Shown here: positions 10,078 to 27,457 of the stretch, one piece after another
Layout of the letters: each line of letters begins with the position of its first letter
Numbering within the stretch: position 1 is the stretch's first letter
Assembly (NCBI GenBank): GCA_020027805.1
Contig: JAHKKQ010000010.1
Coordinates: 1-34,558 of the forward strand
Source of the DNA: Candidatus Dadabacteria bacterium
GTDB lineage: Bacteria > Desulfobacterota_D > UBA1144 > Nemesobacterales > UBA2774
DNA: 34,558 nucleotides
Direction: 5' to 3'
Program-made: the position numbers and the translations under genes
Notes under the pieces: model-generated
Seen by the model: only the letters and a program-made list of their open reading frames with translations
Databases searched by the model: none
What the model was told of the DNA's origin: nothing

Positions 10078-10571
10078 GTCATCGAGAGACCGTCTTCTGG
10101 TCGTGGCGATCTTGCTTTTCGTTGTCATTCCCGCGGAAGCGGGAATCCATATCTTTAAATCAAAATAAGAAAAGACTGGATTCCCGATTAAAGATTTCGG
10201 GAATGACAGAAAAGAAAAGGGTGAGATTGCCGCGCGCTTCACGCCCTCCGGAACAGAAAAGACAAAAATGTTTTTCTTCTTTTCCTTTATGAAAAGACAC
10301 GCATTGTGTGTTTTATGGAACGACAAAGAAAAGAGAAAGGCTGTTTTGTTATTCTTCTTTTCCTCGATGAAAAGAAGCATAATTCTGTAATGTCGTGAAA
10401 GAAAACTCCGCCCTTCGACCCTTCGACAAGCTTCCGTCTTCGCTATCCTCCTATGCTAAAGCTTCGGAGGATAAAAGGCTACGCCGGACAATCAGGGTGA
10501 ACGGGTCTGGCTTCGTTGCTGGTTTGAGCGGAAGAGATTCGGAAGAATCGTAGAGTCACACTACGTGCGTG
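10078..10571. repeat. Mosaic array of REP-like palindromes
   Basis: GTCATCG..GGCGATCT 10078-10112; inverted pair GTCATTCCCG..GGGAATCCA 10124-10149/10177-10207; CTTTTCC..GAAAAG units; CCCTTCGACAAGCT..CAGGGTGAACGG with nested insert; GGAAGAATCGT..CACAC tail. Confidence 0.85.
10433..10492 (+). mobile_element. 60-nt nested palindromic insert (copy 1)
   Basis: Removing it restores CCCTTCGACAAGCT|CAGGGTGAACGG, which is uninterrupted at 13284-13309. Confidence 0.8.
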
Positions 10572-10573
10572 TT

Positions 10574-11359
10574 TCAATAACTCGAGAGCGTGCCCCCGTC
10601 CACGACGATAACCTCCCCGGTGATGTAGTCGGACGCCCTCGACGCGAGGAGCACGGTCGCCCCCTTCAAGTCGTCCTCTCCCCCGAACCTCCCCGCCGGA
10701 ATCGACGCGAGGAGCTCCGCCCCTTTGTCCATGAATTCGGGGCTGATCACGGGCTCCGTCATGTTGGTCGGGAACCACCCGGGCGCGATCGCGTTTACGT
10801 TGATGTTGTGCTTTATCCACCTCACGGCGAGGTCTTTCGTGAGGGTGACTACGGCGCCCTTGGAGGCCACGTATGCCGGGGCGCTCACGAGGCTCGTCGT
10901 CTGGTAGCCCATGACGGAAGATATGTTGATTATCTTCCCCCGCCCGGCCTTTATCATCTCCTTTGCCGCCTCCCTCGAACAGAGGAACGTGCCGGTCAGG
11001 TTTACGCGGAGGACCTTTTCCCAGTCCTCGAGAGTGGTGTCCTCGGGGAGCCCGCCCATGGCGATGCCCGCGTTGTTGACGAGTATGTCGAGCTTCCCGA
11101 ATTTCGCGGCAGTGTCCGCGACCATCTTTATTACGTCTGCTTCAATGGACACGTCGCATTTGAGCGGGAGCGTCTTCACCCCCGTGCTCTTCGATATCTC
11201 TTCGGCCGCCTTCACGCAGCCGCCCAAGTTCCTCGCGCATACGACGACGTCCGCCCCTGCCTCGGCGAGCGCGAGCGCCATCTGCTTCCCTATCCCCGTG
11301 TACCCTCCCGTGACTACGGCCGTCCTGCCCGAGAGATCGAAAAGCTCTTTTACGTTCAT
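10574..11359 (-). CDS. SDR family oxidoreductase (gluconate 5-dehydrogenase/FabG-like)
   Basis: TGG..GIG, NNAG, YVASK, VNAIAPG, VDGG motifs; AGGAGG RBS. Confidence 0.93.
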   Translation of the reverse strand: MNVKELFDLSGRTAVVTGGYTGIGKQMALALAEAGADVVVCARNLGGCVKAAEEISKSTGVKTLPLKCDVSIEADVIKMVADTAAKFGKLDILVNNAGIAMGGLPEDTTLEDWEKVLRVNLTGTFLCSREAAKEMIKAGRGKIINISSVMGYQTTSLVSAPAYVASKGAVVTLTKDLAVRWIKHNINVNAIAPGWFPTNMTEPVISPEFMDKGAELLASIPAGRFGGEDDLKGATVLLASRASDYITGEVIVVDGGTLSSY

Positions 11360-11408
11360 GCGGTGCCTCCTGTGATGCTCGCAATGACAGGCTTATATTT
11401 TTTAAGGT

Positions 11409-11536
11409 ACCCCCTCACCCTACTATTTTGGCTAAGGCATCGACGTACCGGAATTAATTATCAATTCTGCCTTCGCTGTAAGAGCGACCAATTCCTCGTT
11501 CGCTCGGAATTGTTTCCCCTCGAAGGGGAGAGGGGA
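11409..11536 (+). repeat. CCCCTCACCCT..CCCCT..GGGGAGAGG palindrome carrying a ~92-nt insert
   Basis: Uninterrupted relative at 25522-25560; insert ~11421-11512 ends GACC-AATTCC-loop-GGAATT-G. Confidence 0.75.
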
Positions 11537-11545
11537 ATGTAGTAT

Positions 11546-11569
11546 ATCGCAACTGGAAGCCGCTCCTAC
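11546..11569 (-). repeat. GTAG-type REP
   Basis: Reverse complement GTAGGAGCGGCTTCCAGTTGCGAT; sister at 15237-15260. Confidence 0.8.
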
Positions 11570-11593
11570 AGATGGGAGATCCGGAGCCTCCTC

Positions 11594-25238: not shown

Positions 25239-25283
25239 CATGATTTCACGCTCTCGATCTCACTCCGCAGCAAATCATAAGTC

Positions 25284-25560
25284 GTCATGCTGAACTTGTT
25301 TCAGCATCTCGTCTTTTATTCTTTTCTCCCTCCTTTTGTAAAGGAGGGTGAGGGTGGATTTTGCCCTAACGCATTCCGGTCTATTAATACATTCTTCTAT
25401 TTCTAACATAAACTTGATGCTTCTTAAAACCCATATAAAATTACTAGGGTTCGTGAGGGGATAGTTTAAAAATATCATCCTTCGACAAGCTCAGGACGAA
25501 CGGGAATATATAGCTAAGGTGCCCCCTCACCTTAATCCTCTCCCACGCTGGGGAGAGGAA
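25284..25560. repeat. Four different uninterrupted REP-like palindromes
   Basis: GTCATGCTGAACTTGTTTCAGCATCTC 25284-25310; CCCTCCTTTTGTAAAGGAGGG ~25325-25361; CCTTCGACAAGCTCAGGACGAACGG 25479-25503; CCCCCTCACC..GGGGAGAGG 25522-25560. Confidence 0.8.
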
Positions 25561-25608
25561 ATTGTGTATTGGAGATCCAGAGGAGTTTGGTGCGCTCCGA
25601 GGTAGCTG

Positions 25609-26898
25609 ATGCCCGAATTGAGAATATTACGCACGTACGTCGATGTGCCTGATTCGCATACGATCGGTTCATATATATCCCGCGGCGGCTATACGGCGCT
25701 CCCGAAGGCTCTCGGGATGAAGCCTGAGGAAATAATAGAAGAGGTAAAGAAGGCGGGTCTCAGGGGGAGGGGAGGCGCGGGGTTCCCGACCGGGGTGAAG
25801 TGGGGCTTCATACAGAGGGACTCGAAGAAACCGATATACCTCTGCTGCAACGCCGACGAAAGCGAGCCCGGGAGCTTCAAGGACAGGGAGATACTCGAGC
25901 GCGACCCTCACCAGATGCTGGAAGGGATTATAATCGGCTGCTACACGATAAATTCGCACAAGTCATACATATACATAAGGGGCGAGATGCCCTACGGCGC
26001 CAGTATTATAGAGGGTGCGATCGGGGAGGCCTACGAGAAAGGCTACCTCGGGAAGAACATCCTCGACTCGGGCTTCGATTTGGACGTCGTGCTCTTCAGG
26101 GGCGCGGGCGCGTACATATGCGGGGAGGAGACGGGGCTCCTCGAATCCATAGAAGGGAAGAACGGAGAGCCCAGGCCCAAGCCGCCGTTCCCTGCACAGA
26201 TAGGGCTCTTCGGCTGCCCAACTATAGTAAACAACGTGGAAACGCTCGCGTGCGTCCCTCACATAATCAACCGCGGCTCCGAGTGGTTCTCTTCGATAGG
26301 CATACCCAAGAACACGGGCACAAAGATATACGGCCTCTGCGGCAATATTAACAAGCCGGGTCTCTACGAGCTCCCCCTCGGCATCACTCTCCGCGATCTC
26401 ATCAACGTGTACGGCGAAGGTATACCGGGCGGAAGAACCGTGAAGGCGGTATCTCCCGGAGGCTCTTCCGCGGCCGTCCTCTCGGCGGACGAGCTCGATA
26501 TAACTATGGACTTCGATTCCCTTGCCGCCGCCGGATCGATGCTCGGGACGGCTGGCGTTACAGTGATGGACGATACCACGTGCATGGTGAGGGTCGCCCA
26601 GAACCTGGCCCACTTCTACAGGGACGAGTCCTGCGGGCAGTGCGTCCAGTGCAGGGAAGGCACCTGGTGGCTAGAGAAGATGCTAACGAGCATAGAGGAA
26701 GGGAAGGGGAGGATGGAGCACATAGACACGCTCCTCGACGCGTGCTACCAGATGAGGGGGACGACTATCTGCGCGCTCGCCGACGGGTGCGCGATGCCCA
26801 TCGAATCCATAGTCAAGAAATTCCGCCACGAGTTCGAGGACCACGTACGCCTGGGCGGGTGTCCCTTCGAGAGGAAGACATTAGGGGAGTGGGTGTGA
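25609..26898 (+). CDS. nuoF: NADH-quinone oxidoreductase subunit F (stand-alone copy)
   Basis: GLRGRGGAGFPTG.KW, NADESEPG..KDR, GAGAYICGEET.L..S.EG, ESCGQC..CREG...C Fe-S motif. Confidence 0.95.
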   Translation: MPELRILRTYVDVPDSHTIGSYISRGGYTALPKALGMKPEEIIEEVKKAGLRGRGGAGFPTGVKWGFIQRDSKKPIYLCCNADESEPGSFKDREILERDPHQMLEGIIIGCYTINSHKSYIYIRGEMPYGASIIEGAIGEAYEKGYLGKNILDSGFDLDVVLFRGAGAYICGEETGLLESIEGKNGEPRPKPPFPAQIGLFGCPTIVNNVETLACVPHIINRGSEWFSSIGIPKNTGTKIYGLCGNINKPGLYELPLGITLRDLINVYGEGIPGGRTVKAVSPGGSSAAVLSADELDITMDFDSLAAAGSMLGTAGVTVMDDTTCMVRVAQNLAHFYRDESCGQCVQCREGTWWLEKMLTSIEEGKGRMEHIDTLLDACYQMRGTTICALADGCAMPIESIVKKFRHEFEDHVRLGGCPFERKTLGEWV

Positions 26899-27015
26899 GT
26901 CAAAGCGTGGTGCTGCGGGCGCATTACCGCGCCAGTGCGCGAGCCTTTGCTTCCGGAATATGGCTCTTCTTATAGAACTCTCCCAATCCGGTATTCGCCG
27001 GGGCAGCTTTTCTAT

Positions 27016-27171
27016 TTAAACTGACAGCTCGTCGTCCTTCATGGATTTTCTAAACCCTTTTATCCCCTTGCCGAGGGACGCGCCTAGGTCGCCCAGCCTG
27101 CTTGGGCCGAATATAAGAAGCAGTATTACAAGGATTATTAAAAGCTCGGGCAGCCCGAAATGTCCAAACAT
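27016..27171 (-). CDS. tatA: Twin-arginine translocase TatA/TatE subunit (below ORF-track cutoff)
   Basis: [58 protein letters not shown]. Confidence 0.93.
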
Positions 27172-27263
27172 GTTCTTATCTCTCCACATATAAAGTACAG
27201 ATGTTCCGGGTCAATGTCAATTATGGTCCCTACGGGGCTCCATGCTTAATCCTACCCATTCAT

Positions 27264-27457
27264 CCTTCGACCCTTCGACCCTTCGACAAGCTTCCGGCTT
27301 CGCTATCCTCCTATGCTAAAGCTTCGGAGGATAAAAGGCTACGCCGGACAAGCAGGGCGAACGGGGCGGCGAGTCGCCGGGGACATACGAAAATGCCGCA
27401 TTTGCCGGTTTAGGCTGAGGAGGTGCGGAAGGATCGTATACGAGCACACAATGTGTG
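27264..27457 (+). repeat. CCTTCGAC(x3)-REP with nested 60-mer and conserved GGAAGGATCGTATA..CACAC tail
   Basis: First half nearly identical to 10411-10504; second half similar to 23958-24042. Confidence 0.85.
27293..27352 (+). mobile_element. 60-nt nested palindromic insert (copy 3)
   Basis: Lies between GACAAGCT and CAGGGCGAACGG. Confidence 0.8.

Follow-up and report, generated by a model that had tools for sequence, protein, structure and literature searches.

Thirty-nucleotide hairpin modules, probably mobile, nested in palindromic repeats of a Candidatus Dadabacteria genome and of other phyla

Introduction

Insertion sequences of the IS200/IS605 group enter DNA on the 3′ side of a short fixed sequence; they take one orientation, leave no target duplication and depend on hairpins, in a process with a single-strand logic. 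Some families of small dispersed repeats (SDRs) also form hairpins and nest in other repeats; SDR4-6, from Nostocaceae, were reportedly described by Elhai et al. in 2008, in Genome Res 18:1484. Here, we analyse 34,558 nt from Candidatus Dadabacteria bacterium (GCA_020027805.1, contig JAHKKQ010000010.1, positions 1-34,558, forward strand; this whole stretch is hereafter called the window), in which a 60-nt element, the 60-mer, is found three times within two palindromic repeats that we name REP-A and REP-B. The finding is wider than an earlier note on this DNA had proposed: the unit is a hairpin module of 30 nt that nests in itself and is common to many phyla. Its insertion is precise, unit-wise, oriented and duplication-free, 3′ of (N)GCT in hairpin apices, and the hairpin is under selection.

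SDRs, SDR5 above all, are among the described systems that come closest to the modules. SDRs and the modules are alike in being very small (about 20-30 nt), dispersed, proposed to be mobile and without a known enzyme, a likeness that we state on function only; the modules differ in their sequence, 30-nt unit, conserved 15-nt loop, self-nesting at their own GCT and occurrence in many phyla. SDRs are reported in Nostocaceae only, with the palindrome HIP1 as a possible insertion site of SDR5 (PMC5861425); two further papers also cite small dispersed repeats (PMC3116915, PMC2884548). Repetitive extragenic palindromes (REPs), their doublets (REPINs) and the REP-associated tyrosine transposases (RAYTs) form a second point of comparison. 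REPs are imperfect 20-40-nt palindromes present in many copies, as a rule outside genes and at times within them, and recognition as single-strand hairpins has been proposed for them (PMC3116915, PMC3479197, PMC3733652). Di Nocera et al. (2013) found them within longer palindromes as well as in genes whose products are DNA and RNA enzymes (PMC3733652). The modules resemble REPs in size and copy number (30 nt; 7-27 canonical cores per genome of the taxonomic family and 98 in a Planctomycetota genome, G061), but they have no GTAG/CGTC tag at the foot, no doublet form and no RAYT gene that they flank. They begin with TC directly at the stem, and GTAG lies solely inside the loop, on the opposite strand.

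The IS200/IS605 insertion logic, also given in the introduction of PMC3479197, is recognizable in the modules, which are inserted 3′ of a fixed motif without duplication. No TnpA was found in the genome of the window, however, and while IS200/IS605 elements and palindrome-associated transposable elements (PATEs) measure at least 100 nt and carry two different subterminal hairpins with guide sequences, a single hairpin fills the 30 nt of a module. [quoted passage not shown] Bacterial interspersed mosaic elements (BIMEs) are similar to the window in that several repeat blocks form intergenic mosaics in fixed orders, but BIME units stand side by side, whereas modules are nested inside each other's loops. 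Rickettsia palindromic elements (RPEs) are longer than the 30-nt module. Like modules, RPEs lie in frame inside functional genes, as described for Rickettsia in PMC3733652, but modules are exactly 10 codons long and common to many phyla. In the papers searched, neither loop-nesting 30-nt modules nor the peptide words that they encode are described, which is not proof of absence.

Results

Each 60-mer is a nest of two modules

The assembly from which the window comes (G000; 2,350,628 bases in 242 contigs, completeness 93%) contains exactly three full-length copies of the 60-mer (blastn, 91.5-100% identity, E 1e-28 to 4e-16). All remaining blastn matches are of at most 16 nt, so that a chance origin of the copies is excluded. 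The three near-identical copies and their strands (Table 1) are thus as the earlier note had them. A repeat search also aligned 23779-23842 with 27289-27352 (inverted, 64 nt, 94%) and with 10429-10491 (inverted, 63 nt, 92%), and 10411-10505 with 27271-27365, i.e. copies 1 and 2 with their host arms (direct, 95 nt, 97%).

In contrast, the view of the 60-mer as one element could not be upheld. It is composed of 12 + 30 + 18 nt, with a 30-nt inner hairpin module (ATCCTCCTATGCTAAAGCTTCGGAGGATAA, stem ATCCTCC/GGAGGAT) in the apex of a 30-nt outer module (TCCGGCTTCGCT...AAGGCTACGCCGGACAAG, 12 + 18 nt, stem TCCGGC/GCCGGA). This decomposition is based on G004, whose locus orthologous to copy 2 contains only the outer module (G003, G004, G005, G006, G007 and G009 are sister genomes from the same genus). 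The outer module also stands alone in G000, on contigs C233, C67, C174, C31, C73 and C54, in both REP-A and REP-B, and a variant of it is present on C90, C153 and C191. In sister genomes, a third module, TCGGACTCCGCTAAGGCTTCGACCGACGAGA, occupies the apex of the inner one after TATGCT (loci L032 and L019); at nine places in G009 it further shows as a match split in two, with the parts about 30 nt from each other. Arrays of the type L1 L2 L3 / R3 R2 R1, with 12-nt left and 18-nt right halves, are found in a sister genus (L008, L009, L022, L027), and other phyla use a second site, RGCT^WCG (the caret marks the point of insertion), so that there the left halves measure 18 nt and the right halves 12 nt (L073, L101, L130).

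All modules can be written as 5′-TC-(4-5 variable stem bases)-TTCGC-YRAR-GCT-WCG-(complementary stem)-CAAG-3′. The loop of each module thereby contains two GCT sites of its own, CGCT^ and RGCT^, hence a capacity for self-nesting and for long composite hairpins that grow in 30-nt steps.

Inserts from a second family, about 36 nt long (TCACCCTACGGCTCATAGCCTACGGGCGACGTGCCG) and also self-nested to 55-75 nt, were observed between the GCCGGA stem and the CAAG tail of outer modules, at L032 (G009), L017, L029 and L057 (G004) and on the G000 contigs C90 and C153. Given this position, the target of this family differs (after GGA).

Table 1. Positions in the window of the 60-mers, their parts and their host repeats (the caret marks the junction at which filled copies carry the insert)
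Feature	Position	Strand	Sequence or remark
60-mer copy 1	10433..10492	+	host REP-A
Copy 1, outer module, left half	10433-10444	+	TCCGTCTTCGCT
Copy 1, inner module	10445-10474	+	ATCCTCC..GGAGGATAA
Copy 1, outer module, right half	10475-10492	+	AAGGCTACGCCGGACAAT
Copy 1, REP-A left arm	10411..10432	+	CCCTTCGAC CCTTCGAC AAGCT; 8-nt unit doubled, ends in the AGCT target
Copy 1, REP-A right arm	10493..10505	+	CAGGGTGAACGGG
60-mer copy 2	27293..27352	+	host REP-A
Copy 2, outer module, left half	27293-27304	+	
Copy 2, inner module	27305-27334	+	
Copy 2, outer module, right half	27335-27352	+	
Copy 2, REP-A left arm	27263..27292	+	CCTTCGAC three times in tandem, ends in AGCT
Copy 2, REP-A right arm	27353..27365	+	CAGGGCGAACGGG
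60-mer copy 3	23779..23838	-	4 differences from copy 2; host REP-B, unrelated to REP-A
Copy 3, REP-B left arm	23839..23855	-	GAGATCGCCACGTAGCT
Copy 3, REP-B right arm	23760..23778	-	TCGCTACTCGCGATGACAG
Empty REP-A	13284..13310	+	CCCTTCGACAAGCT^CAGGGTGAACGGG
Empty REP-A	25479..25504	+	CCTTCGACAAGCT^CAGGACGAACGGG
Diverged empty REP-A	23931..23963	+	CGTCCTTCGACAGGCTCGGGACGAACGGA, then the downstream mosaic block common to copy 2

Removal of the insert restores the host repeats

REP-A, the host of copies 1 and 2, has the empty form CCCTTCGACAAGCT^CAGGRCGAACGGG, and a 16-nt REP-A probe (at most 2 mismatches) matches G000 at 41 places, which include a few look-alikes in coding sequence. The earlier note had claimed that taking out the 60-mers restores this repeat, of which it cited two empty copies, and, in an unrelated host, the hairpin GTAGCT^TCGCTAC. 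Both empty copies are indeed present, and removal of copy 3 gives REP-B as GAGATCGCCACGTAGCT^TCGCTACTCGCGATGAC, the identical sequence being found at the orthologous site in G007 (L050). For the CCCTTCGAC host (REP-A), one cut position alone reconciles the filled and empty forms, directly after AAGCT; for the GTAGCT host (REP-B), the cut position slides by 2 nt, because element and right flank both start with TC. No target duplication is present in REP-A or REP-B, nor at any exact junction. The exact empty sites therefore bear out insertion 3′ of a short motif without duplication. The proposed AGCT flank precedes all three 60-mers, but it is one form of a more general rule, NGCT or a 3′ T. Two other junctions, one with a duplication of GACAAGC and one with a RAYT-like cut between C and T, were rejected as they fail to reproduce the empty REP-A sequence.

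Left arms of REP-A with two or three tandem 8-nt units CCTTCGAC occur in the window (27263-27286, 10411-10427) and on the G000 contigs C5, C12, C20, C107, C127, C144, C205 and C237, and many 'long' REP-A copies carry an additional CAGGACAGGCTCCTGCT-like segment. Arm doubling is frequent, yet not strictly tied to the module, as filled copies with a single arm are known from L004, L006, L010, L012 and L017.

Filled and empty states differ by whole units in related genomes

The window is syntenic with contig C2 of G009 and with contigs from other members of the genus. When filled and empty sites were compared across these related genomes, the states at five orthologous loci (copies 1, 2 and 3 and the outer modules of C73 and C67) differed by exact whole units with the same ends. 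At the copy 3 locus, where G000 has the 60-mer in REP-B, G007 (L050) reads CTGTCATCGCGAGTAGCGA^AGCTACGTGGCGATCTC, also excerpted as CATCGCGAGTAGCGA^AGCTACGTGGCGATCTC, the predicted empty hairpin, and G003 (L049) has REP-B without any module. Since these two more distant genomes are empty, parsimony favours a gain in the G000 lineage. At the copy 2 locus, G000 has the outer and the inner module, and G004 shares the REP-A and the downstream mosaic but carries only the outer module (GGCTTCGCTAAAGCTACACCGGA; TCCGGCTTCGCTAAAGCTACACCGGA), with a 36-nt insert from another family before CAAG; REP-A is without a module in G006, and G009 has other DNA. At the copy 1 locus, G009 (L032) has the same 60-mer with, in common with copy 1, a stem-breaking G-to-T change (TCCGTC), and additionally a third module of 30-31 nt after TATGCT and a 55-nt insert before CAAG. 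The outer module that G000 carries in REP-B at the C73 locus is absent from G006, which reads CTGCT^TCGCGACGCTCGCAATGAC, and the C67 locus, with an outer module in REP-A in G000, is likewise empty in G006. The C233 and C54 loci are uninformative on gain or loss, because their intergenic DNA has been wholly replaced in sister genomes.

Entire intergenic regions are swapped for other block combinations in sister genomes. Within the window, intergenic mosaic blocks lie at 71-120, 10258-10385, 13112-13150, 10493-10570, 23953-24045 and 27355-27458 and include the hairpin TTCTTCTTTTCCTYGATGAAAAGAAGCA, ATTCTGTAATGTCGG and GGAAGRATCGTATA..CACA..TGTG.

The loop is constant and the stems covary

The loop core TTCGCYRARGCTWCG (15 nt) is constant, while the stems covary between module types. 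It was counted 13, 7, 15, 27 and 15 times in G003, G004, G009, G017 (from the sister genus g4) and G020, against 1, 0, 0, 1 and 0 for the reversed core in the same five genomes (77 vs 2 in total). Stem pairing was assessed on 43 distinct core matches in loci of the family, chosen regardless of pairing, after exclusion of matches within 30 nt of a locus end and of duplicates (there were none of the latter); the cross-phylum loci were left out because their search pattern contained the stem. Six stem positions pair at 6/6 in 21 modules, at 5/6 in 18 and at 4/6 in 4, and the stem types include TCCGGC/GCCGGA, TCCGAC/GTCGGA, TCCACC/GGTGGA, TCCTCC/GGAGGA, TCCCCC/GGGGGA and TCGGAC/GACCGA. Paired cells make up 92.4%, against 81.7% in shuffles (0/500 reach it) and 20-46% with the partner slid, and 35 cells are changed on both sides where 11.1 are expected (0/500 shuffles), with compensatory change in four of the six stem pairs; as the sequences are related, these figures are not probabilities.

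Three module stems from family genomes (L210, L218, L238) pair via G-T (G-U) wobble alone, TCCGAC with GTTGGA; RNA would tolerate such G-U stems better than DNA.

By hand tally, 29 of the 43 family modules have GCT as their left flank. Relative to REP-A, one module orientation is seen in 22 of 22 distinct contexts and the opposite in none, though AGCT is palindromic; common descent may account for part of this. Folded as DNA with its host arms, copy 2 forms a nested hairpin of three levels (-22.4 kcal/mol, z -3.37, 0/200 shuffles as good). Intrinsic terminators combine a G+C-rich hairpin with a T-run, but no such run follows any copy of the 60-mer, the sequences downstream being CAGGGTGAACGGG, CAGGGCGAACGGG or TCGCTACTCG. 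At gathering scores, Rfam gave no match in the window, and its single match in four module-rich loci was an unrelated group II intron.

Modules are found in several phyla and inside genes

A 68-nt query (the 60-mer plus flanks) matched 15 of the 61 related genomes searched, G000 included: 8/9 in its own genus and, with much weaker and partial matches, 6/7 in the sister genus g4. It had no match in genus g2 (0/10), in the remaining genera of the family (0/6) or in seven other families of the order (0/28). The hosts within the family are unrelated to one another: REP-A, REP-B, GATCCTGAAACAAGTT^CAGGATGAC and GGATTCCCGA..TCGGGAATGAC.

The 24-nt core of the outer module, GGCTTCGCYRARGCTACGCCGGAC, was found in 105 stretches of a one-genome-per-species collection, in records labelled Planctomycetota, Phycisphaerae, Anaerolineales, Alpha- and Gammaproteobacteria, Verrucomicrobiota, Acidobacteriota, Elusimicrobia, Saccharibacteria, Bdellovibrionales, Thermodesulfobacteriota, Lentisphaerae and others, usually within lineage-specific palindromes. 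Of 106 distinct cross-phylum occurrences, 90 have TCC immediately before GGC; the preceding flank reads GCT in 48, CT in 61 and T in 74, and the tail AAG in 63 and AGG in 21. When the flanks of these copies are tabulated, GCT is thus a common type but AGCT is not strict, contrary to what the earlier note had supposed. The flanks form a stem of at least 8 bp (at most 1 mismatch) in 19/105 cases, against 1.3% of 2077 shuffled flank pairs, for example GTCATTCCCGCGT[module]GCGCGGGAATGAC and CCCTCTCCCCTCCCATC..GATGGGAGCGGAGAGGGG. The Planctomycetota genome G061 has 98 loop cores (0 in the control), and its host repeat CCGCCCTCCGCT^TCGCTCCGGRGCGG is free of modules at 15 places (control 0) and filled by the outer module in at least 8 loci, so the filled/empty pattern is not peculiar to the lineage of the window.

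Thirty nucleotides equal ten codons and, by our own reading of the sequence, the outer module is open in 5/6 frames. According to Pfam, in-frame outer modules are present in a methionyl-tRNA synthetase (MetRS; L171, two adjacent modules inside the catalytic domain), in QueG (L127), in the C-terminal part of SecA (L113) and in another class I aminoacyl-tRNA synthetase (aaRS; L076). Two further long frames (L111, L087) had no Pfam match. Coding copies, which come from public contigs of metagenome-assembled genomes (MAGs) of other phyla, add ten residues per module, of the GFAKATPDK type.

Discussion

We moderately favour the reading that the 60-mer is a two-level nest from a family of about 30-nt mobile hairpin modules that are non-autonomous. 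Insertion as such is well supported, and it appears likely that the modules are mobile insertion modules. Entry would take place by whole modules, in a single orientation and with no duplication, immediately 3′ of a T, for the most part in NGCT, and this T would lie in the exposed apex of an existing hairpin, either a REP-like palindrome or another module. The outer module may have been seated in the AGCT apex of REP-A or REP-B and the inner module in the CGCT^AAAG apex of the outer one, after which the pair would have spread as a 60-nt unit to three sites. We infer movement via single-stranded DNA by a trans-acting enzyme that recognizes the conserved loop and stem, for which a HUH-type (Y1/RAYT-like) nuclease would be the nearest mechanistic analogue; that the engine is indeed an HUH Y1 enzyme seems doubtful. 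The minimal non-autonomous element parasitizing palindromes that the earlier note had imagined does act in this way (five loci, several hosts, G061), but with a unit of 30 nt, the 60-mer being a nest.

Several observations weigh against this reading. Many of the counted copies are related by descent, so that the counts overstate independent events. Copies 1 and 2 in particular may reflect one insertion after which the filled host spread, because the whole host repeat is common to them. The three 60-mers all lie within 17 kb on one contig, which local copying would also fit; the clustering might stem from local spread, or other copies might have been lost where contigs break in repeat-rich DNA. 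Exceptions to the flank rule are numerous, with GCT absent from 14/43 family and 58/106 cross-phylum copies. The fold is significant for copy 2 alone (copy 1, whose outer stem is broken, z -0.17; copy 3, z -1.23). Finally, when contigs from four DNA sequencing runs were aligned to 9800-28000, there was no exact skip of a 60-mer among the 15 joints listed (with 83 further), a result that reads neither way as such contigs break at intergenic repeats. A soil-run joint from 10444 to 27338, with GAA between, is an outer module without inner module, from other sequence.

The search for an enzyme adds to these points, as no moving enzyme was identified and the IS200/IS605 or RAYT engine suggested in the earlier note gained no direct support. 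The search covered Y1_Tnp (PF01797), outside the other HUH families and any long autonomous element bounded by module halves. Y1_Tnp was found in 0/1 (the own genome), in 3/9 other genomes of the genus and in 0/7 of the module-bearing g4, negatives that are weakened by the incompleteness of MAGs; G017, the richest in modules of the five genomes searched (27 cores), is among those without it. The carriers in the genus are G005, with an IS200-like gene, and G003 and G009, with RAYT-like genes whose HUH and Y motifs were read by eye (in G009 and G003: 154 aa, and a 208-aa frame with its 5′ part running through the upstream repeat). No module was seen to flank a RAYT gene: the RAYT-like genes in G003 and G009 stand between inverted copies of a classical GTAG repeat, GTAGGAGCGGCTTCCAGCCGCGA, 12 of the 13 Y1 loci inspected have no module core within about 1.5 kb, and the three Y1 loci checked for inverted repeats carry other repeats, of GTAG type in two of the three, where they flank the Y1 gene.

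The GTAGGAGCGGCTTCCAGCCGCGA-type repeat is also present in the window (11546-11578, 15235-15297), where true GTAG repeats thus coexist with the modules and are distinct from them. GTAG-tagged repeats (GTAGGAGCGGCTTCCAGCCGCGAT) form an inverted pair there, 11 nt apart; the same repeat flanks the RAYT-like genes in G009 (L070) and G003 (L071), and no Y1 gene was found in G000.

The 60-mer might also be a variant of a classical REP or REPIN that the RAYT of the genus moves, within a known RAYT system. This we consider decidedly unlikely. The RAYT-like genes of G009 and G003 do have HUH and Y motifs, Y1_Tnp is present in 5/5 module-rich genomes of other phyla (1-13 genes) vs 6/14 control genomes, and the host palindromes of the module in the Planctomycetota genome bear a GTAG tag, on the other strand. 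Modules, however, lack a 5′ GTAG tag at the foot of the hairpin, the RAYT genes are flanked by a different repeat, and g4, with partial 60-mer matches in 6/7 genomes and 27 and 15 cores in two of them, has no Y1_Tnp (0/7). E. coli RAYT needs the GTAG tag and cleaves between C and T (PMC3479197), neither of which fits the modules, whose junction lies after T.

Stem covariation and a fixed loop, on the other hand, are what a functional hairpin would display, and G-T (G-U) wobble pairs in three stems, the intergenic position of most copies and that of copy 1 between convergent genes would suit a selected structural motif, such as a protein-binding or RNA-stabilizing hairpin or part of a terminator, absent where precise slippage had removed it rather than where it had never been inserted. 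We regard this as very improbable: no T-run follows the three copies and no Rfam family matches, direct repeats that could support precise slippage deletion do not flank the modules (0 nt in REP-A, 2 nt in REP-B), MetRS, SecA, QueG and another class I aaRS contain modules in frame, and parsimony at the copy 3 locus, with two more distant genomes empty, favours gain. The remaining alternative is modular recombination, in which the apices of hairpins break, for instance when extruded hairpins are cleaved, and other repeat copies serve as templates for their repair, so that loop segments move between REP families and gene conversion carries filled variants to further copies of one host repeat. 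The host repeat common to copies 1 and 2 (95 nt, 97%), the 17-kb clustering, the mosaics of repeat blocks exchanged wholesale between sister genomes of the genus and the tandem 8-nt duplications in REP-A left arms, from which it follows that slippage acts there, all agree with it, and recombination or gene conversion can account for the spread within one host repeat, perhaps also for that of copies 1 and 2. As an account of the modules it is nevertheless unlikely, since the same unit with the same ends is found in hosts alike in GCT only, namely REP-A and REP-B in the window, and in dozens of unrelated palindromes and coding genes of other phyla. The 30-nt size and the TC..CAAG ends are moreover fixed, and stems differ between nested layers with compensating changes, which copying from neighbours would not predict.

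Beyond the reading of mobile, nested modules, we tentatively raise the possibility of an undescribed class of 30-nt 'nano-transposons', single hairpins that would enter the loops of hairpins, including their own, REPs and, in frame, essential genes, in more than 10 phyla and nearly letter for letter, and that would thereby enlarge nested palindromes by 10 codons at a time. Such near-identical spread would imply an unrecognized, widely conserved, possibly housekeeping, single-stranded DNA enzyme or frequent cross-phylum transfer. If truly mobile, the modules would be among the smallest transposable units known and would offer a sequence-defined system for how REP-like repeats multiply, in which the 15-nt loop is fixed, the target is defined as the 3′ side of GCT in the apex of a hairpin, and empty and filled alleles are exact. 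The self-nesting rule predicts the composite hairpins seen in many uncultured lineages, and a near-identical module in many phyla poses the question of which conserved enzyme recognizes it. In-frame copies in MetRS, SecA and QueG would explain recurrent 10-residue peptide inserts in predicted MAG proteins. Nests of modules also break assemblies and create spurious open reading frames, and a model of them would improve annotation.

Other features of the window

All three 60-mers are intergenic on a gene map made from Pfam matches. The neighbours of copy 1 are a CDP-alcohol phosphatidyltransferase gene and a convergent short-chain dehydrogenase gene; copy 3 has an alpha/beta hydrolase gene on one side and an FAD oxidoreductase gene on the other, and copy 2 is downstream of a Nuo51-type gene. 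Elsewhere in the window, 3558-5069 and 5374-6882 are two paralogues in tandem, which have a DUF3943 domain, lie about 1810 nt apart and contain stretches of 78% identity. Three direct repeats spaced by 30 nt (69-76% identity to the reference copy) occupy 32762-32870, inside a frame at 32703-33545 on the minus strand that has no Pfam match.

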